From Escherichia coli (GTDB lineage Bacteria > Pseudomonadota > Gammaproteobacteria > Enterobacterales > Enterobacteriaceae): a DNA stretch of 64,000 nt. The position numbers were made by a program, and so were the translations under genes. The notes beneath the pieces were generated by a model, which had not been told where the DNA came from, ran no database searches, and saw only the letters and a list, made by a program, of their open reading frames with translations. Location of the stretch: the NCBI RefSeq assembly GCF_003334335.1, contig NZ_QOWQ01000005.1; one strand, given 5' to 3'. Each line of letters starts with the position of its first letter. Within the stretch, counting starts at the first letter, position 1. Of this stretch, positions 12,728 through 63,256 are shown one piece after another.

Positions 12728-12772
12728 TGCCCACTCCATGTGATATCAATTGCAAAGAAAGTAAATCTGTAA

Positions 12773-12788
12773 CTGTATTTATATACAG
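12773..12788. promoter_or_regulatory. LexA (SOS) box CTGTATTTATATACAG upstream of dinD
   Basis: Perfect CTGT-N8-ACAG palindrome with AT-rich spacer, read directly from the sequence. Confidence 0.7.
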
Positions 12789-12882
12789 TTGTGAGTATCT
12801 CACGTTCTCAGTGTGCTGGGCAAAAAAACATCGCAAAATCTGGAGCAGGCACGAAAAACAGAATTGAAAGTTGCGGGGAAGA

Positions 12883-12914
12883 AAAATGCCGCTCTGTTTG
12901 AGTGGGCGGCATTT
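12883..12914 (-). terminator. Putative rho-independent terminator downstream of yicC
   Basis: Inverted repeat aaatgccgc...gcggcattt, followed on the minus strand by a T-run. Confidence 0.5.
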
Positions 12915-12948
12915 GTGAAGGCTGAAAAGTAAGAATTGGCGTTACGAG

Positions 12949-13812
12949 TTATTCAATATTCTGAATCTGCTCGCGCATCTGCTCAATCAACACTTTCAGC
13001 TCAATCGCGGAGTTTGTCACTTCGGCATTGATAGACTTCGACGCAAGAGTGTTCGACTCGCGGTTGAACTCCTGCATCATAAAGTCCAGACGACGACCAA
13101 CGGCTTCTTTTTTCTTCAGAATGTTGTAGGTCTCTTTGACATGCGCTTCGAGGCGGTCCAGTTCTTCGGCAACGTCAATTCGTTGTGCCAGCAGAACCAA
13201 CTCCTGCTCCAGACGGTTGTTTTCCAACTGAACCTGAGCATCTTCCAGCTTCGCGACCAAGCGTTCACGCTGCCATTGCAGGATTTCCGGCATATGGGAG
13301 CGGACTTTGACCACTTCGGCGGTGACGCCTTCCAGACGCTGCTCGATCAATGCTTTCAGTGCCTGACCTTCGGTTTCGCGCGCGACAATAAAGTCGTCCA
13401 GCGTACCATCCAGCGCCGCGAGAATTTCAGCGGCAATGGCGTCAAGATCCTGCTCCTGGGCTGCCATCACGCCCGGCCAGCGTAGAATATCAACCGGGTT
13501 GATTTCCCCTTCGTCACTCTGCATTTTTACCCAGTTCGCGGCAGTTACCAGCTGTTTAGCCAGTTTTTCGTTGAGGATCAGCTCACCTTGCGCGCTAACA
13601 TCTGGCTCATAGCGCAGGGTACATTCCACTTTACCGCGCGTCAGGCGAGAACGAATACGCTCGCGAACGACAGGTTCAAGGCTACGGAACTGCTCCGGCA
13701 GACGAAAGTAAGTTTCCAGATAACGCTGGTTTACCGAGCGCATTTCCCAGGTTGCGCTCCCCCATTCACCCTTGATTTCACGCCGGGCGTAGGCGGTCAT
13801 ACTGCGGATCAT
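12949..13812 (-). CDS. yicC: YicC-family stress-induced protein (reported endoribonuclease)
   Basis: 287-aa ORF MIRSMTAYARREIKGEWGSATWEMRSVNQRY, YicC N-terminal plus DUF1732-type C-terminal region. Confidence 0.85.
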   Translation of the reverse strand: MIRSMTAYARREIKGEWGSATWEMRSVNQRYLETYFRLPEQFRSLEPVVRERIRSRLTRGKVECTLRYEPDVSAQGELILNEKLAKQLVTAANWVKMQSDEGEINPVDILRWPGVMAAQEQDLDAIAAEILAALDGTLDDFIVARETEGQALKALIEQRLEGVTAEVVKVRSHMPEILQWQRERLVAKLEDAQVQLENNRLEQELVLLAQRIDVAEELDRLEAHVKETYNILKKKEAVGRRLDFMMQEFNRESNTLASKSINAEVTNSAIELKVLIEQMREQIQNIE

Positions 13813-13938
13813 AGACGTTCCTGTTTATAAAAGGAGAGGTGGAAGGATTATAGCCATCGATGCCTTGTCAGGATAGGAATAACCGCCGGAAGTCCGTATA
13901 ATGCGCAGCCACATTTGTTTCAAGCCGGAGATTTCAAT

Positions 13939-14655
13939 ATGCGTCCAGCAGGCCGTAGCAATAATCAGGTGCGTCCCGTTACCCTGACTCGTAACTATAC
14001 AAAACATGCAGAAGGCTCGGTGCTGGTCGAATTTGGCGATACCAAAGTGTTGTGTACCGCCTCTATTGAAGAAGGCGTGCCGCGCTTCCTGAAAGGTCAG
14101 GGCCAGGGCTGGATCACCGCAGAGTACGGCATGCTGCCACGTTCTACCCACACCCGTAACGCTCGTGAAGCGGCGAAAGGTAAGCAGGGTGGACGCACAA
14201 TGGAAATCCAGCGTCTGATCGCCCGTGCGCTTCGCGCGGCAGTAGATTTGAAAGCGCTGGGTGAGTTCACCATTACGCTGGACTGCGACGTGCTTCAGGC
14301 TGATGGTGGCACGCGTACCGCTTCGATTACGGGTGCCTGTGTGGCGCTGGCAGATGCGCTACAGAAGCTGGTGGAAAACGGCAAGCTGAAAACCAACCCG
14401 ATGAAAGGGATGGTAGCCGCGGTTTCTGTCGGGATTGTGAACGGCGAAGCGGTTTGCGATCTGGAATACGTTGAAGACTCTGCCGCAGAGACCGACATGA
14501 ACGTAGTGATGACCGAAGACGGGCGCATCATTGAAGTGCAGGGGACGGCAGAAGGCGAGCCGTTCACCCATGAAGAGCTACTCACCTTGTTGGCGCTGGC
14601 CCGAGGGGGAATCGAATCCATTGTAGCGACGCAGAAGGCGGCGCTGGCAAACTGA
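13939..14655 (+). CDS. rph: Ribonuclease PH (intact 238-aa form)
   Basis: ORF 13915..14655 trimmed to [20 protein letters not shown]; C-terminus ...[13 protein letters not shown] is full length. Confidence 0.9.
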
Positions 14656-14660
14656 TTTTT

Positions 14661-14688
14661 AAGGCGACTGATGAGTCGCTTTTTTTTG
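14661..14688 (+). terminator. pyrE leader attenuator hairpin (GCGACT-GATG-AGTCGC + T8)
   Basis: Perfect 6-bp stem with an 8-T run between the rph stop (14655) and pyrE start (14720). Confidence 0.7.
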
Positions 14689-14719
14689 TCTGTAGAAAAG
14701 TAAGATGAGGAGCGAAGGC

Positions 14720-15361
14720 ATGAAACCATATCAGCGCCAGTTTATTGAATTTGCGCTTAGCAAGCAGGTGTTAAAGTTTGGCGAGTTTACGCTGAAATCC
14801 GGGCGTAAAAGCCCCTATTTCTTCAACGCCGGGCTGTTTAATACCGGGCGCGACCTGGCACTGTTAGGCCGTTTTTACGCTGAAGCATTGGTGGACTCCG
14901 GCATTGAGTTCGATCTGCTGTTTGGCCCTGCTTACAAAGGGATCCCGATTGCCACCACAACCGCCGTGGCGTTGGCGGAGCATCATGACCTGGACCTGCC
15001 GTACTGCTTTAACCGCAAAGAGGCAAAAGACCACGGTGAAGGCGGCAATCTGGTTGGTAGCGCGTTACAAGGACGCGTAATGCTGGTAGATGATGTGATC
15101 ACCGCCGGAACGGCGATTCGTGAGTCGATGGAAATTATTCAGGCCAATGGCGCGACGCTTGCTGGCGTGTTGATTTCGCTCGATCGTCAGGAACGGGGGC
15201 GCGGCGAGATTTCGGCGATTCAGGAAGTTGAGCGTGATTACAACTGCAAAGTGATCTCTATCATCACCCTGAAAGATCTGATTGCTTACCTGGAAGAGAA
15301 GCCGGAAATGGCGGAACATCTGGCGGCGGTTAAGGCCTATCGCGAAGAGTTTGGCGTTTAA
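14720..15361 (+). CDS. pyrE: Orotate phosphoribosyltransferase
   Basis: ORF 14705..15361 trimmed to [23 protein letters not shown] (213 aa); PRTase motif [13 protein letters not shown]. Confidence 0.92.
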
Positions 15362-15368
15362 AGAAACT

Positions 15369-15392
15369 CGCCGGATGAAAATTCATCCGGCG
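15369..15392. terminator. Perfect 10-bp hairpin between convergent pyrE and slmA
   Basis: cgccggatga-aaat-tcatccggcg inverted repeat; no strong T-run, so terminator function is uncertain. Confidence 0.4.
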
Positions 15393-20183: not shown

Positions 20184-21948
<1,765 letters not shown>

Positions 21949-22354
21949 AATAAATAGCTGACTTATGGATGTGCTGGGGATTCTATGTATTTAGCACCGG
22001 GTTTGCCATTACTTTTCCTTTTTTTGACTTAATTAGCCTCTGTTTGAGCTGATCTGCCGCTAGATCTTCATTTTTTTTGTATTTTTATGCGATTCATTGA
22101 ATTTCAGCCAGGATTGCAGCTTTACATCGACAATATCTGGATTCTCGAGTATGCAAAATTTTATCTCTATGATTTTTATAATTAAAACATATTTTGTGTA
22201 TAAAAATCATTCGGGTCGGATTGCTGCGAAAGAAATGATACACTAGCGCGTCAAAGTAAGTGCGTTATCAGTATTCGGGTAGCTGTTGAGCCTGGGGCGG
22301 TAGCGTGCTTTTTTCTGCTTAACTTAACCAGACAATCACACAAAAGAGTCGCTA
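21949..22354. promoter_or_regulatory. Divergent waaA / waaQ control region (AT-rich, long waaQ leader)
   Basis: 406-bp AT-rich intergenic region between divergent operons; contains the ops element listed separately. Confidence 0.55.
22296..22307 (+). promoter_or_regulatory. ops element GGCGGTAGCGTG (RfaH recruitment site, JUMPstart core)
   Basis: Exact GGCGGTAG octamer followed by CGTG, about 50 nt upstream of the waaQ start on the coding strand. Confidence 0.75.
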
Positions 22355-23425
22355 GTGGAAAAGCCATTTCGAAAAATCCTGGTCATAAAGATGCGATATC
22401 ACGGAGATATGTTATTAACTACTCCTGTAATCAGTACACTCAAGCAGAATTATCCCGACGCAAAAATCGATATGCTGCTTTACCAGGATACAATTCCGAT
22501 TTTATCTGAAAACCCAGAAATTAATGCACTCTATGGTATAAGCAATAAAGGTACGGGAACATTCGATAAAATTAAAAATGCACTTTCACTGATAAAAACT
22601 CTGCGTGCGAATAATTACGACCTGGTCATTAATCTTACGGATCAGTGGATGGTGGCCCTGCTGGTACGTTGTTTACCTGCTCGTATGAAAATATCGCAGC
22701 TTTATGGTCATCGGCAGCATGGCATTTGGAAAAAAAGCTTTACACACTTAGCGCCTATACACGGTACACATATTGTTGAGCGTAATTTGTCGGTCCTTGA
22801 GCCATTAGGTATTACCGATTTTTATACTGAAACAACCATGAGTTACGCCGAGGATTGCTGGAAGAAAATGCGCCAGGAATTAGATGCACTGGGCGTGAAA
22901 GATCATTATGTCGTCATCCAGCCGACAGCCAGACAGATATTTAAGTGCTGGGACAACGATAAATTTTCTATGGTTATCGATGCGTTGCAACATCGTGGTT
23001 ATCAGGTTGTGCTGACTTGTGGCCCTTCGGCAGATGATCTCGCTTGCGTAGATGAAATTGCACGAGGCTGCCAAACAAAACCTATTACCGGCCTTGCCGG
23101 TAAAACACGTTTTCCTGAACTGGGCGCATTAATTGATCATGCAGTGCTCTTTATTGGTGTGGATTCTGCGCCGGGGCATATTGCAGCGGCTGTGAAGACG
23201 CCAGTTATTAGCCTGTTTGGGGCCACTGATCATGTATTCTGGCGTCCATGGACCGAGAATATTATTCAGTTCTGGGCGGGGAATTATCAAAAAATGCCTA
23301 CCCGGCACGAACTTGACCGCAACAAAAAATATCTTTCTGTTATTCCAGCGGAAGATGTCATTGCCGCTACGGAAAAGCTGTTGCCAGAAGATGCACCTTC
23401 AGCTGACAGGAATGCGCAATTATGA
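22355..23425 (+). CDS. waaQ: LPS heptosyltransferase III (GT9)
   Basis: GTG start with AAAGAG RBS; N-terminal KILVIKMRYHGDML aligns with the WaaC/WaaF N-terminal motifs, so the start must lie upstream of Met13. Confidence 0.8.
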   Translation: MEKPFRKILVIKMRYHGDMLLTTPVISTLKQNYPDAKIDMLLYQDTIPILSENPEINALYGISNKGTGTFDKIKNALSLIKTLRANNYDLVINLTDQWMVALLVRCLPARMKISQLYGHRQHGIWKKSFTHLAPIHGTHIVERNLSVLEPLGITDFYTETTMSYAEDCWKKMRQELDALGVKDHYVVIQPTARQIFKCWDNDKFSMVIDALQHRGYQVVLTCGPSADDLACVDEIARGCQTKPITGLAGKTRFPELGALIDHAVLFIGVDSAPGHIAAAVKTPVISLFGATDHVFWRPWTENIIQFWAGNYQKMPTRHELDRNKKYLSVIPAEDVIAATEKLLPEDAPSADRNAQL

Positions 23426-24546
23426 TCGTGGCATTTTGCTTATATAAATATTTTCCATTTGGTGGGCTACAGCGTGACTTTATGCGTATTGCCTCAACAG
23501 TTGCCGCACGGGGCCACCATGTTCGGGTATATACACAGTCGTGGGAAGGCGATTGCCCGGAAGCATTTGAGCTTATTCGCGTACCGGTTAAATCCCATAC
23601 TAACCATGGACGTAATGCAGAATATTATGCCTGGGTTCAAAACCATCTGAAGGCACATCCCGCTGATCGCGTTGTTGGCTTTAATAAGATGCCTAGGCTG
23701 GATGTTTATTTTGCCGCCGATGTCTGTTATGCCGAGAAAGTGGCGCAAGAAAAGGGATTTTTCTATCGTTTAACATCGCGCTATCGCCATTATGCTGCAT
23801 TCGAGCGAGCGACTTTCGAACATGGTAAATCGACGAAACTTATGATGTTGACCGATAAGCAAATCGCCGATTTTCAGAAGCATTACCAAACTGAACCAGA
23901 ACGTTTTCAAATTCTTCCCCCTGGTATCTATCCTGACAGAAAATACAACGCGCAAATCCCAAACAGTCGTGAAATTTATCGCCAGAAAAATGGCATCACT
24001 GAACAACAAAACTTATTGCTGCAGGTTGGTTCAGATTTTGGTCGTAAAGGTGTGGATCGCTCAATTGAAGCTTTGGCATCGTTACCAGAATCGTTACGCC
24101 ATAATACGTTGTTGTTTGTTGTTGGCCAGGATAAACCGCGTAAATTTGAAGTGCTGGCAGAAAAACTCGGTGTGCGTAGTAAAGTGCATTTCTTTTCCGG
24201 GCGGAATGATGTGTCTGAATTAATGGCAGCCGCTGATTTATTAATGCATCCCGCTTATCAGGAGGCTGCAGGTATTGTTCTCCTTGAGGCAATTGCCGCG
24301 GGATTACCTGTGTTGACGACTGCGGTATGCGGATACGCACACTATATCACAGATGCTAATTGTGGAACGGTCATCGCTGAACCTTTCTCCCAGGAACAAT
24401 TAAATGACGTTTTACGTAAAGCGTTAACTCAATCTCCATTGCGCATGGCCTGGGCGGAGAATGCTCGGTATTACGCCGATACTCAGGATTTATACAGCCT
24501 GCCGGAGAAAGCGGCAGATATCATTACAGGTGGTTTAGATGGTTGA
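23422..24546 (+). CDS. waaG: LPS core glucosyltransferase I (GT4)
   Basis: 374-aa ORF; ATGA start/stop overlap with waaQ. Confidence 0.9.
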
Positions 24547-25336
24547 ATTAGAAGAGCCACTTGCCACACTCTGGCGTGGTAAAGATGCCTTTGCAGAAGT
24601 TAAAAAACTGAATGGCGAGGTCTTCCGTGAACTGGAGACGCGTCGCACATTACGCTTTGAACTGGCCGGCAAAAGTTATTTCCTCAAATGGCACAAAGGG
24701 ACGACCCTAAAGGAGATTATAAAAAATCTGCTCTCATTGCGGATGCCCGTTTTAGGTGCAGACAGAGAGTGGCACGCTATTCATCGACTGCATGATGTCG
24801 GTGTTGATACGATGCACGGAATAGGATTTGGTGAAAAAGGGTTAAATCCATTAACTCGCACATCATTTATTATTACCGAAGATCTCACTCCCACAATTAG
24901 CCTTGAAGATTATTGTGCAGATTGGGCGGTCAACCCGCCTGATGTACATATTAAGCGTATGCTGATCGCGCGTGTGGCAACCATGGTGCGCAAAATGCAT
25001 GCAGCAGGGATTAATCACCGTGATTGTTATATCTGCCACTTTTTACTCCATTTGCCATTTACTGGCCGGGAAGATGAATTAAAAATTTCGGTTATCGATC
25101 TGCACCGGGCACAGATACGTGCAAAAGTACCACGTCGTTGGCGGGATAAAGATTTGATTGGTTTATATTTCTCATCAATGAATATTGGTCTGACGCAGAG
25201 AGATATCTGGCGATTTATGAAGGTTTATTTTGGGATGCCTTTACGCGATATTTATAGACTTGAGATTGATTTACTTAAAAAGGCAAGGATTAAAGCAGGA
25301 AAAATAGAAGCAAGAACAATAAGAAAAAACTTGTAA
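24539..25336 (+). CDS. waaP: LPS core heptose(I) kinase
   Basis: 265-aa ORF with kinase-like catalytic motifs ([11 protein letters not shown]); 8-nt overlap with waaG. Confidence 0.9.
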
Positions 25337-25368
25337 ATAGTATTTTATTACAAAAAGGGATTCTAAAA

Positions 25369-26349
25369 TTGTTGAAATATAGAAACTTCGTTGCTAAGAA
25401 GAAAAATTTATACCAAAACGAAGTGTCGTATGTTAAAAATTTACATATTGCACTATGCTTTGACCGTGAATTCATAATGCCAGCGGGTGTTGCATTATAT
25501 TCAATTATATCCAACAATAGACATATTAACCTTCATTTTCACCTTCTTATATCAGGCATAGAAGAAAAGGAGTGTTCAGCTTTTTACGAACTAGAAGGTC
25601 CTAATACATCAATATCTGTATATTATATAACTGATAAATTTGACATTAATCCGGATACATTAGTTCTTGGTATTCCTTTATCAACATGTTTACGTTTTTT
25701 AATCCCAGAAGTTATTGATGATAAAATAAATAAGATACTTTATCTTGACTGTGATGTCATATGTAATGGTCCTTTAGATGAACTGGTTGATTATAATTTA
25801 AATGCTGATATTGCATGTGTAATTCCAGATTCGCCAGAAATGCAAGAACGTGTAAAAAAATTAGACTATGGCATTGAGTTTATTAATTATTTTAATGCCG
25901 GGGTTATGTTTATTAATACCAGCGAATGGAAAAAAAATAATATAACACAAAAAGCGTTAGAAATGATCAACAGTGGAAAAGTATATAGGTATGCAGATCA
26001 GGATGTGCTCAATATTTTACTTAATGGACGAGTGCATTACCTTGATAAGAAGTACAATAATAAGACAACATTGTCAGTACGATGTGATGAAGAACAAAAA
26101 AACTTGCCCAACACAATTATAATGCATTATGTTACCCAGAATAAACCATGGTACAAAATATTTAGAGCACAAAATTTTGATCATTATTTTTCAAATTCTC
26201 CTTGGAAGAACCATAAAAGAAATCTAGCTCCATCATCAAGTGAGATTAGGTTAAAGTCTAAAGTTTTTTGGCTAGAAGGAAAATATTGTAAAGCCATTTC
26301 TTATTATTATAAGTATTTACTTGTTAAATTATTTGGCTTAAAGATTTAG
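25369..26349 (+). CDS. LPS core glycosyltransferase, GT8-like, at the waaS position
   Basis: 326-aa ORF from TTG start; YLDCDV (DxD), FNAGVMFIN and DQDVLN motifs shared with the two downstream GT8 paralogs; very low GC. Confidence 0.6.
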   Translation: MLKYRNFVAKKKNLYQNEVSYVKNLHIALCFDREFIMPAGVALYSIISNNRHINLHFHLLISGIEEKECSAFYELEGPNTSISVYYITDKFDINPDTLVLGIPLSTCLRFLIPEVIDDKINKILYLDCDVICNGPLDELVDYNLNADIACVIPDSPEMQERVKKLDYGIEFINYFNAGVMFINTSEWKKNNITQKALEMINSGKVYRYADQDVLNILLNGRVHYLDKKYNNKTTLSVRCDEEQKNLPNTIIMHYVTQNKPWYKIFRAQNFDHYFSNSPWKNHKRNLAPSSSEIRLKSKVFWLEGKYCKAISYYYKYLLVKLFGLKI

Positions 26350-26362
26350 CTGGAATGAAATT

Positions 26363-27442
26363 ATGAAAATAGCCTTTATTGGCGAAGCTGTTTCTGGATT
26401 TGGCGGCATGGAAACAGTCATTCGTGATGTTATTACTACCTTCAGGCAACAACATATCCAAAGTGAAATTTTTTTCTTTTGTCGTAATGACAAAATGGAT
26501 AAGGGATGGCTGGAAGGTATTAAGTACTCGTGTTCATTTTCCAATATTCGCTTAGGTTTTTTGCGTCGCGCGAAACATATTCATGCTTTAAGCAAATGGC
26601 TTCATGATTATCAGCCAGATGTTGTTATTTGTATTGACGTGATCTCGTGTTTGTATGCGGCCAAAGCTCGTAAAAAATCGGGGATTGATGTACCTGTATT
26701 TTCATGGCCGCATTTTTCTTTAGATCATAAAAAACATGCCGAATATATCACCTGTGCCGACTATCATTTAGCCATCAGCTCTGGTATTAAACAGCAAATG
26801 ATTAGCCGGGGTGTACCAGAATCGACAATAAACGTTATTTTTAATCCCGTTGAGGCGAAAAATTCAGTCATTCCTGCACCCGGGGAAGGCGAAACGGCAA
26901 CATTCATTTATGTTGGGCGCATGAAATTTGAAGGCCAAAAGCGCGTAAAAGATCTGCTTGATGGCTTATCACAAGTGCAAGGTGACTGGAAACTTCATGT
27001 ATTGGGAGATGGCTCCGATTTCGAAAAATGCCAGGCTTATGGTAGAGGATTAAATATTGATGATCGAATTGTCTGGTATGGTTGGCAACAACATCCCTGG
27101 AAATTAGTTCAGCAAGATATTAAAAAAGTGAGTGCATTATTACTCACGTCATCTTTTGAAGGTTTCCCAATGACTCTACTTGAAGCCTTGTCGTGGGGGA
27201 TCCCTTGTATCAGTGCAGATTGTGTCTCCGGGCCTGTTGATATCATTCAGCCTGATGTTAATGGTCATTTATATCAACCGGGGGATATGACCGGTTTTGT
27301 TGCTCTTCTCAATAAATACATAGCCGGTGAAATTCACATCGCACATGAAAAAATTCCGGCGTCGATCGATAAATTTTATCAACCGAAATATTACGACAGA
27401 TTGCAAAAGATAATTATTTCTGTTATTTCCCGGAGGAAATAA
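26363..27442 (+). CDS. waaB: LPS core alpha-1,6-galactosyltransferase (GT4)
   Basis: 359-aa ORF MKIAFIGEAVSGFGGMETV..., GT4 C-terminal EGFPMTLLEA motif. Confidence 0.8.
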   Translation: MKIAFIGEAVSGFGGMETVIRDVITTFRQQHIQSEIFFFCRNDKMDKGWLEGIKYSCSFSNIRLGFLRRAKHIHALSKWLHDYQPDVVICIDVISCLYAAKARKKSGIDVPVFSWPHFSLDHKKHAEYITCADYHLAISSGIKQQMISRGVPESTINVIFNPVEAKNSVIPAPGEGETATFIYVGRMKFEGQKRVKDLLDGLSQVQGDWKLHVLGDGSDFEKCQAYGRGLNIDDRIVWYGWQQHPWKLVQQDIKKVSALLLTSSFEGFPMTLLEALSWGIPCISADCVSGPVDIIQPDVNGHLYQPGDMTGFVALLNKYIAGEIHIAHEKIPASIDKFYQPKYYDRLQKIIISVISRRK

Positions 27443-28461
27443 TGCAGCAGGTTTTTTTCCAGGAGACTGAGTTTCTCAATTCGGTTATTGATTATAATCA
27501 TAAAATAGAAGCAGAAAATCTTTGTCTGGATATTGCTTATGGGACTGACAAAAATTTTCTTTTTGGATGCGGAATATCGATTGCTTCAATATTAAAATAT
27601 AATGAAGGAAATCAATTATGCTTTCATATTTTTACTGATTATTTCGGTGATGACGATCGCAAATATTTTGATGCCCTGGCCAGGCAATATAAAACAAGAA
27701 TTAAGATATATTTAATTAATGGTGATCGACTCCGTTCATTACCCTGCACCAAGAACTGGACTCATGCTATTTATTTTCGTTTTGTTATCGCCGATTACTT
27801 TTTTAATAAAGCACCCAAAGTTCTTTATCTGGATGCAGATATTATTTGTCAGGGAACTATAGAACCACTTATCAATTACACGTTTTCTGAACATACAGTC
27901 GCAATGGTTGTTACAGAAGGACAAAAAGACTGGTGGGCAAAACGTGCTCATTCGTTAGGTGTTGCTGGGATTGCTAATGGTTACTTTAACTCCGGTTTTT
28001 TACTGATTAATACTAATCAATGGACGAATGAGCGGGTTTCTGCACGGGCCATTGCAATGTTAAGTGATCCAGAGATAGTCAAAAAAATAACACATCCTGA
28101 TCAGGATGTATTAAATATGTTATTGGCAGACAAACTTGTTTATGCTGATATTAAATATAACACTCAGTTTAGTTTAAATTATCAACTAAAAGAAAGTTTT
28201 AAAAACCCAGTAACTAACGATACAGTTTTTATTCATTATATTGGTCCAACTAAACCCTGGCATGACTGGGCCTGGGATTATCCAATATCACAAGCTTTTA
28301 TGGCGGCAAAAAATGCTTCACCATGGAAGGATACTGCGTTATTGAAACCGGTTAATAGTAATCAATTAAGATACAGTGCTAAACATATGTTGAAAAAAAA
28401 GCAATATATCAAAGGATTTGGCAACTATCTTTTGTATTTTATAAAAAAGCTAAAGCATTAA
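27442..28461 (+). CDS. waaI: LPS core alpha-1,3-glycosyltransferase (GT8)
   Basis: 339-aa ORF; GT8 motifs YLDADIIC, FNSGFLLIN, DQDVLNMLL; 1-nt overlap with the waaB stop. Confidence 0.75.
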   Translation: MQQVFFQETEFLNSVIDYNHKIEAENLCLDIAYGTDKNFLFGCGISIASILKYNEGNQLCFHIFTDYFGDDDRKYFDALARQYKTRIKIYLINGDRLRSLPCTKNWTHAIYFRFVIADYFFNKAPKVLYLDADIICQGTIEPLINYTFSEHTVAMVVTEGQKDWWAKRAHSLGVAGIANGYFNSGFLLINTNQWTNERVSARAIAMLSDPEIVKKITHPDQDVLNMLLADKLVYADIKYNTQFSLNYQLKESFKNPVTNDTVFIHYIGPTKPWHDWAWDYPISQAFMAAKNASPWKDTALLKPVNSNQLRYSAKHMLKKKQYIKGFGNYLLYFIKKLKH

Positions 28462-28624
28462 TACTGATAATCTATACTCTAAATAATTCGAGTTGCAGGA
28501 CAAAAAGCCAGTGGCGTTTTGAGGAACGCTTGCGTTGGCCCTGAAATGCCGAGTAACTCGCCGATGCAGCACATGCAACTTGAAGTATAACGAGTATATA
28601 AAGTAATGATATAAGGATAGCCTT

Positions 28625-29641
28625 GTGAACTCATTTCCTGCCATAGAGATAGATAAAGTTAAAGCCTGGGATTTTAGGCTTATTGATGAAAATACTGCTG
28701 AAAGTTTAAATGTTGCCTATGGTGTCGATTCCAATTATCTTGATGGTGTAGGTGTTTCCATTACTTCAATTGTCATTAATAATCGACATGTTAATCTTGA
28801 TTTTTATATTATTGCTGATGTTTATAACGACGATTTCTTTCAAAAAGTTGAGAAACTTGCTGAGCAATACCAATTAAGAATCACACTTTATAGAATAAAT
28901 ACTGATAATCTTCAGTGCCTGCCTTGTACACAAGTCTGGTCAAGAGCAATGTACTTCCGTTTATTTGCTTTTCAATTATTGGGAGTAACACTTAATCGTT
29001 TGCTTTATCTTGATGCCGATGTAGTTTGTAAGGGAAATATTAGTCAACTATTGCATTTAGAGTTTAATGGAGCGGTGGCTGCAGTAGTCAGGGATGTAGA
29101 CCCAATGCAGGAAAAGGCGGTAGTCAGATTATCTGATCCTGAACTTCGGGGGCAGTATTTTAATTCTGGTGTCGTTTACTTAGACCTAAAAAAATGGACA
29201 GAAGCAAAACTAACCGAAAAAGCACTGTCTATTCTTATGAGTAAAGATAGTATTTATAAGTATCCTGACCAGGACGTTATGAATGTCCTACTAAAAGGGA
29301 TGACAATATTCCTGCCACGTGAGTTCAATACTATATATACAATAAAAAGTGAGTTAAAAGATAAAACGCATCAAAAATATAAAGAGTTGATAAAAGAGGA
29401 TACTCTTCTTATTCATTATACTGGGGCCACCAAGCCGTGGCACAAATGGGCAATTTATCCATCGGTAAAATACTATAAAATAGCTTTAGAAAGATCCCCC
29501 TGGAAAGATGACTCACCACGAGATGCAAAATCAATTATTGAATTCAAAAAAAGATATAAACATCTGTTAGTGCAACATCATTATATCTCAGGACTCATTG
29601 CAGGAGTGTGTTATCTTTGCCGAAAATATTACCGTAAATAA
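28625..29641 (+). CDS. waaJ: LPS core alpha-1,2-glycosyltransferase (GT8)
   Basis: 338-aa ORF from GTG start with AAGGA RBS; GT8 motifs YLDADVVC, FNSGVVYLD, DQDVMNVLL. Confidence 0.75.
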   Translation: MNSFPAIEIDKVKAWDFRLIDENTAESLNVAYGVDSNYLDGVGVSITSIVINNRHVNLDFYIIADVYNDDFFQKVEKLAEQYQLRITLYRINTDNLQCLPCTQVWSRAMYFRLFAFQLLGVTLNRLLYLDADVVCKGNISQLLHLEFNGAVAAVVRDVDPMQEKAVVRLSDPELRGQYFNSGVVYLDLKKWTEAKLTEKALSILMSKDSIYKYPDQDVMNVLLKGMTIFLPREFNTIYTIKSELKDKTHQKYKELIKEDTLLIHYTGATKPWHKWAIYPSVKYYKIALERSPWKDDSPRDAKSIIEFKKRYKHLLVQHHYISGLIAGVCYLCRKYYRK

Positions 29642-29658
29642 CATTTAACTGGTTTAAC

Positions 29659-30357
29659 ATGATTCAGAAGAATAAAATCAAAGATTTAGTTGTTTTTACC
29701 GATGAAAATAACTCAAAGTATCTCAATGTATTAAATGACTTTCTTTCTTATGATATTAATATCATCAAAGTTTTTCGTTCTATAGATGATACAAAAGTCA
29801 TGCTTATTGATACCGATTACGGTAAATTGATACTTAAAGTTTTTTCGCCTAAAGTAAAACGCAACGAACGTTTCTTTAAATCTCTTTTAAAGGGAGATTA
29901 TTATGAACGCCTTTTTGAGCATACTCAAAAAGTGCGTAACGAGGGGCTACATTCTCTCAATGATTTTTATTTGTTGGCAGAACGGAAAACATTACGTTTT
30001 GTCCATACTTATATCATGCTTATCGAATATATCGATGGCGTAGAGTTGTGTGATATCCCCGATATTGATGAAACTTTAAAAAATAAAATTCAACAATCAA
30101 TTCGTTCATTACACGAACACGGTATGGTATCTGGTGATCCTCACCGCGGTAATTTTATTATTGAAAATGGTGAAGTACGCATTATTGATCTTTCAGGAAA
30201 ACGGGCATCTGCACAACGTAAAGCGAAAGATCGTATTGATTTAGAGCGACATTATGGTATTAAGAATGAGGTTAAAGATCTCGGTTATTATCTTTTAGTT
30301 TATCGTAAAAAAATACGTAATCTTATGCGGCGTTTGAAAGGGAAGCCAGCACGATAA
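29659..30357 (+). CDS. waaY: LPS core heptose(II) kinase
   Basis: 232-aa ORF; small kinase-like protein at the position WaaY occupies in this cluster. Confidence 0.75.
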   Translation: MIQKNKIKDLVVFTDENNSKYLNVLNDFLSYDINIIKVFRSIDDTKVMLIDTDYGKLILKVFSPKVKRNERFFKSLLKGDYYERLFEHTQKVRNEGLHSLNDFYLLAERKTLRFVHTYIMLIEYIDGVELCDIPDIDETLKNKIQQSIRSLHEHGMVSGDPHRGNFIIENGEVRIIDLSGKRASAQRKAKDRIDLERHYGIKNEVKDLGYYLLVYRKKIRNLMRRLKGKPAR

Positions 30358-30428
30358 AGTAAAAGTCTTACATTTAAACGTCTTCGTCAGGACATTTCTA
30401 TGCGGAGTTCTTATTTCACAGGTTTATC

Positions 30429-31238
30429 ATGAAGAATATTAGATACATTGACAAAAAAGATGTTGAAAACCTGATAGAAAGTAAAACGTCTGATGATGTT
30501 ATTATTTTTCTTTCCGGCCCCGCATCGCAAAAAACACCATTGTCAGTGCTGCAGACAAGGGATGTTATTGCTGTCAATGGTTCTGCACAATATCTATTAA
30601 GTCATAATATTATTCCCTATATTTATGTACTTACCGATGTTCGCTTTTTACATCAACGGCGTGATGATTTTTATAAATTTAGCCAGAGAAGTCGTTATAC
30701 CATCGTAAATGTTGACGTTTATGAACATGCTTCTGAAGAAGATAAGCGGTACATCCTTCAAAACTGCCTGGTACTACGTTCATTTTACCGCAGAGAAAAA
30801 GGTGGATTGATCAAGAAGATCAAGTTTAATATTTTGAGCCGAATTCATAAAGAGCTCCTGATCTCTGTACCTTTTTCTAAAAAAGGTCGTCTGGTTGGCT
30901 TTTGCAAGGATATTAACCTCGGTTATTGTTCATGCCATACCGTTGCTTTTGCTGCAATCCAAATAGCCTATTCGCTGAAGTATGCTCGTATTATCTGTTC
31001 AGGCCTTGATTTAACGGGTAGCTGTTCGCGTTTCTATGATGAAGATAAGAATCCTATGCCCTCAGAGTTGACTCGGGATTTATTCAAAATTTTACCATTT
31101 TTCCGTTTTATGCGTGAAAATATAGAAGATATCAATATTTATAATTTATCCGACGATACTGCAATTCAATATGATATTATTCCCTATATGAAAATATCCG
31201 AAATTGAAGAGCCGTGTGTTTATGAAAAAATAAGCTAA
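30429..31238 (+). CDS. waaZ: LPS core biosynthesis protein WaaZ (KdoIII-associated)
   Basis: 269-aa ORF at the WaaZ position in the WaaY-WaaZ-WaaK order; assignment by position and size. Confidence 0.65.
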   Translation: MKNIRYIDKKDVENLIESKTSDDVIIFLSGPASQKTPLSVLQTRDVIAVNGSAQYLLSHNIIPYIYVLTDVRFLHQRRDDFYKFSQRSRYTIVNVDVYEHASEEDKRYILQNCLVLRSFYRREKGGLIKKIKFNILSRIHKELLISVPFSKKGRLVGFCKDINLGYCSCHTVAFAAIQIAYSLKYARIICSGLDLTGSCSRFYDEDKNPMPSELTRDLFKILPFFRFMRENIEDINIYNLSDDTAIQYDIIPYMKISEIEEPCVYEKIS

Positions 31239-31290
31239 TATTTTATATGTGTTTATTACGTGTTATAAATTATATTGGAGTTGGCTAATA

Positions 31291-32433
31291 ATGATTAAAA
31301 AAATAATATTTACCGTCACACCAATATTTTCTATACCGCCAAAAGGAGCTGCAGCGGTTGAAACATGGATTTATCAGGTCGCAAAAAGACTTTCGATTCC
31401 AGTAACTATCGCCTGTATTCGAAACGAAGGTTACCCAACCTACACAAAAGTAAATGATCACTGTGATATTCACTACATTGGTTTTAGTCGAGTCTATAAA
31501 CGACTTTTCCAAAAGTGGACTCGACTTGATCCTGTGCCATATTCTCAGCGTATTTTAAATACCCAACCTAAAAACACTGATCCGAAAGACTCTGTTATTG
31601 TTATCCACAATAGCATGAAGCTGTATAAACAGATTCGTAGCAGAAGCCCTCACGCGCAGCTAGTTATGCATCTTCATAATGCTTTCGAGCCAGGTGAGTT
31701 AGACAAAAATGCAAAGATAATTGTTCCTAGCCAGTTTCTTTTCGATTTCTATTCGGAAAAAATGCCTGATGCAAATATTGCTATTGTGCCTAATGGTTTT
31801 TGTTCTGAATCGTATGAACAAAATAATACTGAAGATTTGAGGCAGAAACTGAACATTGATGCAAATGATACCGTGTTATTATTTGCAGGAAGGATATCAC
31901 CAGATAAAGGTTGCCTGATGCTTATGGAGGCTTTTAATCAGCTGAATAAGATACAAGATAACCTCAAACTGGTGATTGTCGGAGATCCTTTTGCCAGTAA
32001 AAAAGGCGAAAAAGCTGAATATCAGAAAAAAGTTCTGGATGCAGCGAAAGCTATTGGAGCGCAATGCATTATGGCGGGTGGACAGCCTCCAGAGCAGATG
32101 CATAACTATTACCGTTTAGCAGATTTAGTTGTTGTTCCTTCTCAGGTAGAAGAAGCTTTTTGTATGGTAGCTGTTGAAGCGATGGCGGCAGGTAAACCAG
32201 TGCTTGCCAGTCAAAAAGGTGGAATTAGTGAGTTTGTTCTGGAAGGAATTACAGGCTATCACCTTGCAGAGCCTATGACATCTGAAAGTATTCTCGCGGA
32301 TATTAAGCGCGTTTTGGCGGATGCTGACAGAGCTCAAATTGCTAAAAATGCCCGAAATTTTGTTTTCTCAAAATATAGCTGGGAACATGTTACTCAGCGT
32401 TTTGAAGCACAAATACAAGACTGGTTTGGTTAA
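31291..32433 (+). CDS. waaK: LPS core GlcNAc transferase-like glycosyltransferase (GT4), Salmonella/R2-type
   Basis: ORF 31249..32433 trimmed to ATG 31291 (GGAG RBS at 31277-31280), 380 aa; GT4 fold; size fits WaaK rather than the K-12 WaaU length I recall. Confidence 0.65.
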   Translation: MIKKIIFTVTPIFSIPPKGAAAVETWIYQVAKRLSIPVTIACIRNEGYPTYTKVNDHCDIHYIGFSRVYKRLFQKWTRLDPVPYSQRILNTQPKNTDPKDSVIVIHNSMKLYKQIRSRSPHAQLVMHLHNAFEPGELDKNAKIIVPSQFLFDFYSEKMPDANIAIVPNGFCSESYEQNNTEDLRQKLNIDANDTVLLFAGRISPDKGCLMLMEAFNQLNKIQDNLKLVIVGDPFASKKGEKAEYQKKVLDAAKAIGAQCIMAGGQPPEQMHNYYRLADLVVVPSQVEEAFCMVAVEAMAAGKPVLASQKGGISEFVLEGITGYHLAEPMTSESILADIKRVLADADRAQIAKNARNFVFSKYSWEHVTQRFEAQIQDWFG

Positions 32434-32452
32434 AAATTATTGGATTTGAAGA

Positions 32453-32488
32453 GCCTGCCTGAACTTAATGTCAGGCAGGCTTTTTTTT
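32453..32488. terminator. Bidirectional terminator between convergent waaK and waaL
   Basis: Perfect 10-bp stem gcctgcctga / tcaggcaggc with 8-nt loop and T8 run; the waaL stop codon lies within the T-run. Confidence 0.7.
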
Positions 32489-33704
32489 ATTTATTCCGCA
32501 TTGCTAACAGTAAACCAACAATCAAGCCAATTGGTTTGAGATCAACTTCCTCGAAGTTACCTCGAATAATATAAAAGCTTACAAGCGTTAAAAATAGTAG
32601 TAATTGACCATTATAAGGAGTGACGACAACTGTTTTAAACGTTGCATTAGCTGTCTCTTTGATAATAGAGCCATACAGATAAAGTAAAGCGAGTAGTCCA
32701 GCCAAACCCGCTGCAAACCAAATTGACAAAACAACGTTGTGTGGCCCAATGGATTGCCTGAACTTCCATGACGGAAAATCTACAACACGCTTATTATATA
32801 TTGCATGGTAAATATCATCGCCGTAGCCATATCCCTTAAGAGGATTTTCCATAATTAATGTCCACGCCGTACCTTGAGTACCATTGGTATAGCGATAAGA
32901 ACTGTCGGTCTGTTGAAGTTTATAAATAAGCCTGTCTTTACCAGCATGATCACCTTTATAGGTAAATACACCCACTGCGGCAACAGAAATAACGATGGAA
33001 GTCAGCATCAATAATTTCCACTGACGATTTAAGATTAACCATAGCAGAGTCACTATGAATACTGCCAGCCATGCACCACGAGACAGCGTTCCTAATAGCA
33101 GAAATAAGAAAACTGCACTAAAAATTACGAATGCTATTTTATAAGAGGTTTTCTTGATAAGCCAAAGGTTTAATAATGCTGGAAACAGAAACACCATTGA
33201 ATCGGAAATACTACGGTGTTCATAGGTGGAAAATGGCATTATTCCTTTATTATAATCCTGAATATAAAGAATAAGTTCAACAAGACAACGTAAGCCAAGT
33301 CCGGTAACTAATGAGTATAGTACAATTTTACCAATGCTTTCATTATCTTCATCTTTTAATAATGCAGGTATAAGTAAACTATAGGCCAAAAATCCTTTAA
33401 GTACCGTATTACTGAATTCTTTAAAACTGATTTTCAGATCAGGTGATATAAAAGTAGCATATAAAAGAATGAGTGATAGTGCCAGGACACTATAAAAAAG
33501 ATTATTTTTATAGAGTACTTTAAATGTTCCCGGAGCACGAGAAACTTGATAGATTACCGTAATAATCATTAGTATAGATATGATGTGTTTATAACGGGTT
33601 ATACCATCAAGGAAAAAGGTTGCAATAAAGAGGAATACCAACGCTTTATTCCAGTACGGTTTCCACTTTTCTTTATTACGTAGCGCCAGCGAGGCTGTTA
33701 ACAT
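32487..33704 (-). CDS. waaL: O-antigen ligase
   Basis: 405-aa polytopic membrane ORF MLTASLALRNKEKWKPYWNKALVFLF...; N-terminus resembles the Salmonella/R2-type WaaL I recall, not the K-12 WaaL. Confidence 0.85.
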   Translation of the reverse strand: MLTASLALRNKEKWKPYWNKALVFLFIATFFLDGITRYKHIISILMIITVIYQVSRAPGTFKVLYKNNLFYSVLALSLILLYATFISPDLKISFKEFSNTVLKGFLAYSLLIPALLKDEDNESIGKIVLYSLVTGLGLRCLVELILYIQDYNKGIMPFSTYEHRSISDSMVFLFPALLNLWLIKKTSYKIAFVIFSAVFLFLLLGTLSRGAWLAVFIVTLLWLILNRQWKLLMLTSIVISVAAVGVFTYKGDHAGKDRLIYKLQQTDSSYRYTNGTQGTAWTLIMENPLKGYGYGDDIYHAIYNKRVVDFPSWKFRQSIGPHNVVLSIWFAAGLAGLLALLYLYGSIIKETANATFKTVVVTPYNGQLLLFLTLVSFYIIRGNFEEVDLKPIGLIVGLLLAMRNK

Positions 33705-33742
33705 TGCTTCTCCACCATCTTAAATAATATATAACGTATTAA

Positions 33743-34699
33743 TCAGGAATTGATTTTATTAAATACCGTTTCTGCAGTCAGATGAGCAAGATCTTTATCT
33801 GGTGCCCTACAAACCACCTGATTCTTCCCATATCCGCCAATTAATCCCGGATCGGTTGGTCCATAAACCGTGATATTCGGTCGATCCAGTGCTGCAGTTA
33901 AATGACTTAACCCAGTGTCTACCGATACCACGAATTTCGCTCCGGCCAGCACACGGGCAACACCTTCCAGACTCATCTTCGGCAATACTTCAACATAAGC
34001 AAATCCTTCCGCCAGTCGTTTCGCCCGTTTTTCCTCATGCGGCGCACCCCACGGAAGTTTAATGCGAATCCCTGAATCTGCCAGTAAACCAATCAATTCT
34101 CGCCAGTGTTCTTCCGGCCAGTGTTTATCATCACGGGTCGTCGCATGAAGAAATACGGCATATTCGCCAGCATCTGTAGGCAGGTTCGTCAGAAAATGCT
34201 GTGCGATAGCATAATCGCCCTGGGTTTGCGGTTTGCTATAGCCCAGACTTTTGGCAAAAAGTTCGCGGATGCGTTCTACGGCGTGCTGCTGTTTTGCAAT
34301 ATGATGTTTACGATTGTAAAACAGGCTGGCTAAAGGTTCGCGAGCGGTTTGCCAGTCCATTCCATGCTTTACGCCATGCGCCAGACGCGTCACCAGCGCC
34401 GCGCTTTTTACCAGCCCCTGAGCATCGATAACTGCGTCATAGTTCTCTGCTTGTAGCGCTTCACGAAACGCTTTGCGTTCAGCTTTTATGGGGGCCGAGA
34501 ACCAGGCTTTACGCCAGCGACGTATTGCCACAGGAATAACTCGCTCAACGGCGGCGTGCCAGGAAGGAATCTGTGCGAACCCTTCTTCCACCACCCAGTC
34601 AAACTTAATCCCTGGGATTGCCTGCTGGGCATCAGTGAGTGCGGGCAACGTATGGAGAACATCGCCCATCGACGATGTTTTAACGATCAAAACCCGCAT
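33743..34699 (-). CDS. waaC: LPS heptosyltransferase I (GT9)
   Basis: 318-aa ORF MRVLIVKTSSMGDVLHTLPALTDA. Confidence 0.9.
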   Translation of the reverse strand: MRVLIVKTSSMGDVLHTLPALTDAQQAIPGIKFDWVVEEGFAQIPSWHAAVERVIPVAIRRWRKAWFSAPIKAERKAFREALQAENYDAVIDAQGLVKSAALVTRLAHGVKHGMDWQTAREPLASLFYNRKHHIAKQQHAVERIRELFAKSLGYSKPQTQGDYAIAQHFLTNLPTDAGEYAVFLHATTRDDKHWPEEHWRELIGLLADSGIRIKLPWGAPHEEKRAKRLAEGFAYVEVLPKMSLEGVARVLAGAKFVVSVDTGLSHLTAALDRPNITVYGPTDPGLIGGYGKNQVVCRAPDKDLAHLTAETVFNKINS

Positions 34700-34702
34700 C
34701 CG

Positions 34703-35749
34703 TCAGGCTTCCTCTTGTAACAATAGAGAGTTGAGTTCTTCCAGCACGCGCTGGGGAGTAATGTCGATCAAGCTCTGGTGATAACCTTCTGCGGCGTCGC
34801 CTTTGCGTACTTTGTGATAGCCGGTAATCAGGCGGATCACGCGCGCTTTATGGGATAGCGGCGGTGTGAAGTCCGGGCTACTCGGACCATACAGGGCAAC
34901 CAGCGGACGATTGAGCGCCGCCGCAACGTGCATCAGGCCAGAATCGTTAGTGACAATGGCTTTACAGGCTGCAATCAGGATAACCGCTTGATCAAGCTGT
35001 GTTTCCCCCGCCAGGTTCCGGCACCATGCCTGCTGCTCGGTATTTAAAGCGGCAAGAATCTCATTGCCCGCTTCATGATCTTTCGCCGAGCCAAACAGAA
35101 CCACTTGATAACCTTCATCAATCAGTTGCTTTGCCAGTTCCGCATAGTGGTAGTGTGGCCAGCGTTTTGCCGGACCAAACTCCGCACCCGGGCAAAAACC
35201 AATCATTGGACGTTCTGATGAAAGCGAAAATTGATTACAGGTATATGATTTTTCACCTTCGCTCACCTGCAACTGCGGCCATAACAATGGCTGCGGCAGA
35301 TCTTGTGCGGTACGCATAATACCTTTGTCATAGGCCAGCGCCACATAGCGTTCCACCATCAGCGGCCAGGCTTCTTTATCCAGCACACGCACATCGTTGA
35401 GTAAACCGTAGCGCATTTCGCCGCGCCAGCCGGTGCGATGAGGAATACCCGCGAAGAAAGGCACTAATGCGGATTTGAAGGAGTTGGGTAAAACGTAGGC
35501 GCGGTCGTAACGTTTTTCGCGCAGGCTATGACCCAGCTTGCGGCGTTCGCCAATTTCCAGCGCCCCGTGACCAAGCGGCATAGGAATGGCTTCGTTAACT
35601 TCCGGCATCCGCGATAATAATGGACGGCACCATGCCGGTGCCATCACGTCGATTATCGCCTGGGGATAGCGCGCCTGGAGCGTGCGATAGAGACTTTGCG
35701 ACATCATCATGTCGCCAACCCATGACGGGCCGATCACCAATATTTTCAT
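34703..35749 (-). CDS. waaF: LPS heptosyltransferase II (GT9)
   Basis: 348-aa ORF MKILVIGPSWVGDMMMSQSLYRTL. Confidence 0.9.
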   Translation of the reverse strand: MKILVIGPSWVGDMMMSQSLYRTLQARYPQAIIDVMAPAWCRPLLSRMPEVNEAIPMPLGHGALEIGERRKLGHSLREKRYDRAYVLPNSFKSALVPFFAGIPHRTGWRGEMRYGLLNDVRVLDKEAWPLMVERYVALAYDKGIMRTAQDLPQPLLWPQLQVSEGEKSYTCNQFSLSSERPMIGFCPGAEFGPAKRWPHYHYAELAKQLIDEGYQVVLFGSAKDHEAGNEILAALNTEQQAWCRNLAGETQLDQAVILIAACKAIVTNDSGLMHVAAALNRPLVALYGPSSPDFTPPLSHKARVIRLITGYHKVRKGDAAEGYHQSLIDITPQRVLEELNSLLLQEEA

Positions 35750-35828
35750 TCACTTCATCCTTCAAGCTGTCTCTGCGGCGGCTGCCTGCGTTCACTCCGG
35801 TCACTTACTTTTGTAAGCTCCCGGAGAT

Positions 35829-36809
35829 TCACTTAGTTGCTGCCTTGATACTGCTCGAATGATTTTGTGAATTTACGTTGATGTCGCGATTCAGCCAGGC
35901 CATGTATTCCGTTACGCCTTCGGCAACGGTTTTGAACGGTTTGTCATAACCCGCCGCGCGCAGATTCGTCAGATCTGCCTGCGTGAATGCCTGATAGCGG
36001 CCTTTCAGTTTATCCGGGAACGGAATGTATTCGATCTGGCCTTTCTTGTGATAAGCAAGCGTTGCATCGGCTACCGCCTGGAAGGATTCCGCACGACCAG
36101 TACCGAGGTTGAAGATGCCGGAAACGCCATTTTCCAGGAACCACAGGTTTACATCTGCCACGTCGCCAACATAGACGAAGTCGCGTTTAAAGTTCTCGCT
36201 ACCTTCGAACAGTTTCGGTGATTCACCGTTATTAAGCTGGGTGTTGAGATGGAAAGCGACGCTCGCCATGCTGCCTTTATGGCCTTCACGCGGTCCATAA
36301 ACGTTGAAATAACGGAAGCCAACAATCTGTGAGTTTGCTTCCGGCAGAATTTGACGAACATATTCATCAAACAGGAATTTCGAGTAACCGTAGACGTTCA
36401 ACGGTTTTTCGTACTCGCGGGATTCAATAAAGTCGGAAGTGCGACCGCCGTAAGTGGCTGCGGATGAAGCGTACAGGAACGGGATTTCACGCTCCAGGCA
36501 GTAGTGCAGCAGCTCCTTGGAGTATTGATAGTTGTTATCCATCATATACTTGCCGTCCCACTCGGTGGTGGAAGAGCACGCGCCTTCGTGGAAAATCGCT
36601 TCGACATCGCCGAACTCTTCGCCAGCCATAATCTGGATCAGGAAGTCTTCCTTATCCATATAGTCTGCGATATTCAGGTCCACCAGGTTCACAAACTTGG
36701 TGCCGTCTTTCAGGTTGTCCACCACCAGAATATCGGTGATGCCTTTGTCATTCAGGGCTTTAACGATGTTGCTGCCGATAAAGCCCGCGCCGCCGGTAAC
36801 GATGATCAT
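35829..36809 (-). CDS. hldD: ADP-L-glycero-D-manno-heptose 6-epimerase, with a 16-residue C-terminal extension
   Basis: 326-aa [22 protein letters not shown] (Rossmann); ends ...[23 protein letters not shown] where I recall the canonical protein ending ...AWLNRDA (310 aa). Confidence 0.85.
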
Positions 36810-37022
36810 AACTGTAACCTTCGAATTGTGGAGTCAGAGACAATCTCAGACACGAATACTTCTATCATATCACTACACGGCGCTGGCTACAGCCATTCAC
36901 CGAAAGTGGTATGCCTGAGCGTGATTTATGCTTATTTTTTGACAAGTACAAATGCTTCATCTCGTATCAACCTATGGCTTTCGGTAATATGTGCTGAAAT
37001 TTGCCCAGTCTGGAGAATCGCG

Positions 37023-59790: not shown

Positions 59791-60228
59791 TCATTCATCG
59801 ATGCACTTTATAGAATCATCAATGGCCATAATAGTACTATTAACTCTCAATTTTATATTTTTATCATCACTACAAATATTAACTGAATTTATATCAATGA
59901 TTTTTTTATTCTTATCTTTTATTTTATTTACTGTTTCAATGCAATCAGCGGCAAGTTGGAGTGGATTTAGATTTTTCAGATATGGTCTTATGATCTTTCC
60001 CTTACTTAATAAATAGCATGTATAGGATTCGGAAAGTCCAGCATCTATTTTGTACCTCATTATATTAGATAAGGATGTGAGAAATTCCTTGTTATCATTC
60101 GCAGCCATATATGCCAGTCCGAGTTCAGCCTCTGCGGCCTTACAGGCAAAATAGCTTAGTGAACACGCTTTTCGTCCCTCTTTAGTACTGGCTGATATTA
60201 GTGCCCATAATATTGCTTTGTCTGCCAA
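59791..60228 (-). CDS. Hypothetical protein; candidate immunity protein of the degenerate third Rhs module
   Basis: 145-aa AT-rich ORF immediately downstream (minus strand) of a degraded Rhs C-terminal remnant; role inferred from position only. Confidence 0.4.
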   Translation of the reverse strand: MADKAILWALISASTKEGRKACSLSYFACKAAEAELGLAYMAANDNKEFLTSLSNIMRYKIDAGLSESYTCYLLSKGKIIRPYLKNLNPLQLAADCIETVNKIKDKNKKIIDINSVNICSDDKNIKLRVNSTIMAIDDSIKCIDE

Positions 60229-60316
60229 ATCTAACTCTCTCTGAAATTGTCTTGCAGTAACTGCACTCGCAGAAATAGAGAAAAAAATACAATTGTTAAT
60301 AACCTTGCCATATTTT

Positions 60317-60900: not shown

Positions 60901-60934
60901 ACTACTGCTGCGGCAGTCTGATGAACTATTGCTT

Positions 60935-61396: not shown

Positions 61397-61407
61397 ACAT
61401 CTACAAC

Positions 61408-62352: not shown

Positions 62353-62393
62353 CGTGCCGGCGGGAATCCCCCACTGTGCATAGGCAACTCACG

Positions 62394-63236: not shown

Positions 63237-63256
63237 TGCAGGAACCTCCACAAGGG

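Follow-up and report, generated by a model that had tools for sequence, protein, structure and literature searches.

A derived one-base variant of the pyrE attenuator behind an intact rph gene in a natural, non-K-12 lineage of Escherichia coli

Results

The rph-pyrE locus

The window analyzed here is the whole 64,000-nucleotide stretch of Escherichia coli DNA (contig NZ_QOWQ01000005.1). As shown in Table 1, rph and pyrE are adjacent on the same strand and are separated by a spacer of 64 nt (14656-14719). The open frame of rph runs from ATG at 13939 to TGA at 14653-14655 and encodes 238 amino acid residues. In the profile search, the product scored 380.8 bits against the RNase PH equivalog TIGR01966 (cutoff 141.5) and the alignment was full length: residues 2-236 of the product correspond to profile positions 1-235 of 236. 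Furthermore, the DNA is identical to rph annotated as "ribonuclease PH" (WP_001247093.1) in many genomes. Thus, the open frame and the full-length profile match verify the complete 238-residue RNase PH of the original prediction. The pyrE product was assigned in the same manner (240.6 bits against TIGR00336; cutoff 106.8).

Table 1 Features of the window

Feature	Position	Strand	Evidence or remark
rph, intact RNase PH gene, 238 codons + TGA	13939-14655	+	ORF, translation, TIGR01966
GGGGG run, rph-1 frameshift site (MG1655, GGGG)	14605-14609	+	alignment with NC_000913.3
TAG, out of frame here; premature in-frame stop in rph-1 strains	14624-14626	+	sequence, MG1655 translation
rph stop codon, TGA	14653-14655	+	5 nt to extended stem, 8 nt to G+C-rich core
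pyrE attenuator hairpin	14661-14682	+	fold, terminator scan, MG1655 alignment, allele counts
T8 run of the intrinsic terminator	14680-14687	+	pyrE -40 to -33; sequence, terminator scan
GAGGAG, putative Shine-Dalgarno sequence of pyrE	14707-14712	+	7 nt before ATG; read by eye
pyrE, orotate phosphoribosyltransferase, 213 aa	14720-15361	+	ORF, TIGR00336, annotation in identical genomes
G+C-rich hairpin between convergent pyrE and slmA	15369-15392	unassigned	terminator-like site, 10 pairs
LPS core cluster, not K-12 type	22355-33704		alignment, profile matches
GT8 glycosyltransferase in K-12 waaS position	25369-26349		
waaK-type N-acetylglucosaminyltransferase in K-12 waaU position	31291-32433		PRK15484
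RfaL unlike that of K-12, adjoining the waaK-type gene	32487-33704	-	PRK15487

The spacer contains the hairpin of the pyrE attenuator. The 5' arm AAGGCGACT (14661-14669), the loop GATG (14670-14673) and the 3' arm AGTCGCTTT (14674-14682) form a stem of 9 pairs. Five nucleotides (14656-14660) lie between the rph stop and this extended stem, which begins 6 nt after the last base of the stop codon as had been claimed; the G+C-rich core of the stem, GCGACT (14664-14669), starts 8 nt past the stop. When folded in isolation, the hairpin has a predicted energy of -11.6 kcal/mol, and none of 200 shuffled sequences folded as well (z about -5). The expected run of eight T residues is present at the 3' end of the hairpin, and the pyrE ATG is only 32 nt from it. 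Thus, the adjacency of the two genes, a terminator in the spacer and a stop codon within approximately 10 nt of it, which are sequence features of the translation-coupled attenuator of rph-pyrE, are all found in the window. Compared with the E. coli rph-pyrE (orfE-pyrE) attenuator, the genes, their order, the hairpin core GCGACT-GATG-AGTCGC, the T8 run, and the spacer and ribosome-binding site ahead of pyrE are the same. The position of the rph stop is also the same as in the known system, so the wild-type distance between stop and attenuator proposed previously was found.

A scan for sigma-70 promoters found none upstream of rph and none between the T run and the pyrE ATG. It should be mentioned that TATAAT is present at 13897-13902; we do not claim this motif as the rph promoter because there is no good -35 element at the right spacing. 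No Rfam family covering the attenuator was detected, either when the entire window was searched or in a permissive search restricted to 13800-14800. Downstream, the hairpin between pyrE and slmA is likely to mark the end of the rph-pyrE operon, judging from its position and pairing.

Comparison with the rph-1 allele of K-12

We aligned positions 13880-14760 of the window with the genome of MG1655 (NC_000913.3). The rph-1 allele (MG1655, W3110) lies at the same locus, and the mutation site can be aligned base for base. MG1655 has lost one base of the G run (GGGG, as compared with GGGGG in the window); the frame is shifted, and the product has 228 residues ending in ARGESNPL. The hallmarks of rph-1, GGGG near codon 223 and the 228-residue product, are therefore absent from the window, which has GGGGG and 238 residues. 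The rph-1 stop is 29 nt further upstream, whereas the rph stop of the window adjoins the hairpin. Accordingly, the frameshift that the original prediction placed at this site in MG1655 is real, the alignment it proposed for the 3' end of rph revealed no such deletion in the window, and its conclusion that this is not an MG1655-type rph-1 background was correct.

The distribution of rph-1 in complete E. coli genomes was then considered. A 71-nt query carrying the rph-1 deletion matched exactly in 167 of the 5,356 matching genomes. Among the matches listed, the exact ones were a K-12 MG1655 and strain HT-946, and the other sampled matches that covered the whole query all span one extra base. For JM109 and GM4792, the extra base is the sole difference from the rph-1 71-mer. 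JM83, JM109 and XL1-Blue have been reported to be rph+ (PMC11148124). Judging from these matches, almost all E. coli, K-12 derivatives such as JM109 among them, have an intact rph, and this state carries little information on lineage. Because intact rph is the default, it excludes only strains of the MG1655 / W3110 type.

Lineage of the window

The gene order of the window matches that of K-12 throughout, in agreement with the K-12-like synteny noted previously. In the 881-bp segment around rph, the alignment with MG1655 contains 9 substitutions and, in the hairpin, a second indel. A comparison with MG1655 over 25 kb gave 507 mismatches and an identity of 97.9%. The center of the waa region is 86-88% identical to MG1655 or unmatched, with no match at 25246-26362 and 31193-33794, and BLASTP detected no significant similarity of the protein in the waaU position and of WaaL to K-12 WaaU and WaaL. 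A non-K-12 waa cassette had been suggested, and these two proteins bear this out. Thus, neither the near-identity to MG1655 nor the K-12 type waa cluster that would mark the K-12 lineage is present. In contrast, the window is 99.96-99.99% identical to many isolates of natural origin, whose hosts are humans, pigs, poultry and other animals.

The single-C allele of the attenuator

The second indel changes the attenuator itself. The 3' arm reads AGTCGC before T8 in the window and AGTCGCC before T8 in MG1655: the window lacks a C between 14679 and 14680, and both alleles have a T8 run. Because of the missing C, G14663 pairs with U and not with C. Consequently, the pair adjoining the T run is still G-C, a G·U replaces a G-C at the base of the stem, and the spacer is shortened from 65 nt to 64 nt. 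The predicted energy of the isolated hairpin is -11.6 kcal/mol for the single-C form and -14.3 kcal/mol for the CC form; in the context following the stop codon, the values are -11.7 and -14.7 kcal/mol, respectively. The single-C hairpin is thus predicted to be weaker by about 3 kcal/mol.

The CC form was found exactly in 4,576 of 5,415 matching E. coli genomes (84%), and the single-C form (exact 70-mer) in 485 complete genomes, which is about 9%. The CC form is also present in E. albertii, Citrobacter youngae, Enterobacter, Leclercia and Pseudocitrobacter. Because other species possess CC, we consider CC to be ancestral and the single-C form to be derived. Therefore, the hairpin is not identical to the common attenuator of the K-12 type, and the word "canonical" in the original prediction does not hold: the window has a minority, derived allele in which one C is deleted from the stem.

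Other natural changes were observed at this site. Strains EC21Z-097 and KBN10P04869 (L092, L093) have a CC stem followed by T9, not T8. In strain 23CRST050 (L094, 1545-2265), an IS200/IS605-family element directly follows a T run of the attenuator that is shortened to T7; this insertion places about 700 bp between the terminator and pyrE.

Geometry of the attenuator in other species

We compared the hairpin geometry at 79 rph loci from other species. A hairpin and a T run directly follow the rph stop at 50 of them, and the distance from the stop to the G+C-rich stem is 6-13 nt at 47 of the 50 (median, 8 nt; window, 8 nt). The stems vary by clade: for example, GGCGAC/GTCGCC in Enterobacterales, TAGCTCC/GGGGCTA in Vibrio and CGCGGC/GCCGCG in Aeromonas. 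Pairs were counted in separate folds of each sequence, with the T run as the anchor, and nearly all scored stem positions remain paired, with several types of pair at each position. A MAFFT alignment of 47 attenuator segments followed by RNAalifold was tried as well; the consensus was meaningless, the 3' arms being out of register across clades. The pair adjoining the T run is Watson-Crick at all 50 loci. In the window this pair is likewise G-C, but a G·U stands at the base of the stem, which fits a weakening of the terminator by the deletion.

In Pasteurellaceae and Pseudoalteromonas (loci L036, L039, L041, L048, L057-L059, L071 and others), no hairpin was found and pyrE starts 10-25 nt past the rph stop. 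Because the hairpin is absent from these loci, the attenuator seems to be specific to certain clades (Enterobacterales, Vibrionaceae, Aeromonas and Shewanella) and is not found wherever rph and pyrE adjoin.

Linkage to the LPS core cluster

The N-acetylglucosaminyltransferase in the waaU position scored 724 bits against PRK15484 (cutoff 618), and the RfaL protein scored 651 bits against PRK15487. The order of the waa genes was taken from the annotation of near-identical genomes. In a core of the R2 or Salmonella-like type, a waaK-type N-acetylglucosaminyltransferase gene adjoins waaL, together with waaB, waaO, waaJ, waaY and waaZ. Judged by its genes, the cluster of the window looks R2 or Salmonella-like; about 9% of the complete genomes carry it. 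Upstream of waaQ, there is a JUMPstart RNA (Rfam RF01707) at 22269-22307 on the plus strand (53.1 bits; gathering score, 35), which is the only Rfam match at the gathering threshold in the whole window.

For the waa region of 16 kb (21000-37000), only 509 genomes reach a coverage of at least 80%, and 479 match it at 99% identity or higher; these counts are close to that of the single-C genomes (485). The linkage was sampled from both sides. The single C is present in M217, whose rph-pyrE region is identical to that of the window, and in four of the best matches to the waa region; conversely, the waa cluster of the window is present in each of three genomes taken from those with the single C. 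Over the 30-60 kb compared, identity to the window is 99.8% or higher for all eight genomes. Because the two-way sampling agreed in eight of eight genomes, the single-C allele appears to travel on one haplotype with the waaK-type core cluster.

Discussion

We propose that the rph-pyrE operon in the window is of the wild type and belongs to a natural E. coli outside K-12, with coupled attenuation and a derived single-C allele of the attenuator; taken as a whole, this explanation is very probable. In such an operon, transcription would start upstream of rph, and the intrinsic terminator in the spacer would set transcription into pyrE. A ribosome that finishes rph close behind RNA polymerase would mask the 5' arm of the hairpin, so that the terminator would not form and pyrE would be transcribed. 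At low UTP, the polymerase would be slower, coupling would be tighter and read-through would follow; at high UTP, the polymerase would run ahead and transcription would terminate. Because rph is intact, the ribosome would reach the normal stop here; in rph-1 strains, it would stop 29 nt earlier. In the single-C allele, a G·U would take the place of G-C at the stem base, and the rest of the mechanism would be intact. The leader attenuator of E. coli pyrBI follows the same logic: UTP-sensitive pausing sets the proximity of the ribosome, and the ribosome blocks an intrinsic terminator. However, pyrBI uses a dedicated short leader peptide, whereas the upstream frame in the present case is the full-length enzyme gene rph. 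The coupling mechanism of rph-pyrE and the defect caused by rph-1 are described in PMC11148124 and PMC2784333, both of which cite Jensen 1993 and Bonekamp 1984. According to the supplement of PMC5933015, translation ends 10 bp before the terminator in rph+ cells and 36 bp before it in K-12.

The same base change is known from laboratory evolution. The CC of the common allele corresponds to pyrE positions -41/-42, and the T run to -40 to -33. In evolved MG1655, the mutation pyrE(G-41ΔG terminator) recurs at the nucleotide level (Knöppel et al. 2018; PMC5933015), and pyrE(G-42C terminator) is likewise listed there. The bases in that paper are written on the plus strand of MG1655, and pyrE is on the minus strand. 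Deletion of either C of -41/-42 yields exactly the attenuator sequence of the window. The terminator changes were read as putatively raising read-through at the attenuator and thereby relieving the pyrimidine defect of rph-1 (PMC5933015). Other suppressors of rph-1 include a deletion of A at pyrE(-40) (PMC5892946), a C-to-T change in the spacer (PMC6941894) and a recurrent 82-bp deletion (PMC2784333). The laboratory suppressors compensate in rph-1 strains, whereas the allele of the window is natural, occurs with rph+ on a non-K-12 haplotype and is carried by about 9% of genomes.

Three other explanations were weighed. The original prediction left open whether the window comes from another lineage or from a repaired strain, and rph+ derivatives of K-12 certainly exist: in addition to JM83, JM109 and XL1-Blue in PMC11148124, JM109 and GM4792 are rph+ by sequence, and the gene order is the same as in K-12 across the window. 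However, the 9 substitutions and second indel in 881 bp, the 507 mismatches in 25 kb, the waa center that is 86-88% identical or unmatched, the two waa proteins with no significant similarity to those of K-12 and the isolates that match at 99.96-99.99% speak against K-12. Because the substitutions, the divergence over 25 kb and the different waa cluster point the same way, the part of the claim that named another lineage stands; a repaired rph-1 strain, or an rph+ derivative such as JM109, is refuted as the source by the divergence of the sequence and has practically no chance of being correct. The missing C could also be an error of sequencing or assembly beside the T8 homopolymer. Such single-base indels are a common error of long reads, and one of the sampled genomes, ETEC4090, has what look like indel errors close by, in dut and coaBC. 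This explanation was rejected as exceedingly unlikely, given that 485 independent complete genomes carry the exact 70-mer, that the single C accompanies the flanking haplotype in eight of eight sampled genomes and is absent from MG1655, and that both alleles have the same T8 run. It is very improbable, too, that the hairpin merely terminates rph and that pyrE is expressed from its own promoter, outside attenuation. Long rph-pyrE spacers in some relatives (e.g. L008, L017 and L032) would suit this idea; against it, the 32 nt between the T run and the ATG gave nothing in the promoter scan, PMC11148124 and PMC2784333 treat co-transcription and attenuation as established in E. coli, and rph-1 could not be polar on pyrE unless transcription read through.

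Within the proposed attenuated operon, the effect of the single-C allele on pyrE is a separate question. The weaker predicted hairpin would, by inference, reduce termination somewhat and raise basal read-through into pyrE. The effect could also be negligible, since 9 pairs and T8 are kept and the predicted energy is within the interspecies range. That the deletion is neutral and hitch-hikes with the linked waa cluster, with no measurable effect on pyrE, is a serious possibility with somewhat less than an even chance. The linkage in eight of eight genomes and the similar counts (485 and 479-509) favor it, as do the retained pairs and T8, the energy inside the interspecies range and the intact rph, owing to which there is no pyrE deficit to be compensated. 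However, the 1-bp deletion at this position has been selected repeatedly in rph-1 MG1655, and therefore it changes read-through at least in that background; moreover, the Watson-Crick pair next to the T run at all 50 loci of other species and the predicted loss of about 3 kcal/mol do not fit neutrality well. We tentatively suggest, as a reading that is less likely than not, that the single-C form is a natural regulatory allele that measurably raises basal read-through into pyrE or narrows the response to UTP.

The rph-pyrE attenuation system is already known and its intact state is the norm in E. coli; therefore, intact rph together with the attenuator excludes only a laboratory strain of the MG1655 / W3110 type. 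The modest interest of the locus is that a natural attenuator allele coincides with a known suppressor from laboratory evolution and is carried with a particular LPS-core haplotype. If the regulatory reading is true, one lineage has naturally fixed a change that is repeatedly selected in rph-1 K-12 in the laboratory. If expression of pyrE is altered, the allele would show, in a simple case, how a classic attenuation mechanism varies in nature, and would caution against using the K-12 attenuator as the sole wild-type reference for evolved strains.

Several differences were observed elsewhere in the window. At 36810-37022, htrL, which is located between rfaD and kbl in MG1655, is absent, and a stretch of about 1.3 kb in MG1655 (L004, 7617-8939) is missing from the window. 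The close relatives M217 and NDM4 possess ISKox3 (ISL3-family) between dinD and yicC (L002, 11489-12709), which the window lacks (12740-12948). M217 also has an IS1A near RHS remnants, which the window lacks at about 61750. By the annotation of M217, which is near-identical, the region from about 59800 to 64000 contains fragments of RHS core proteins, a pseudogene of an Imm57-family immunity protein, yibG and yibA. This region is repetitive in E. coli: a query of 40000-64000 matches a median of 19 places per genome.
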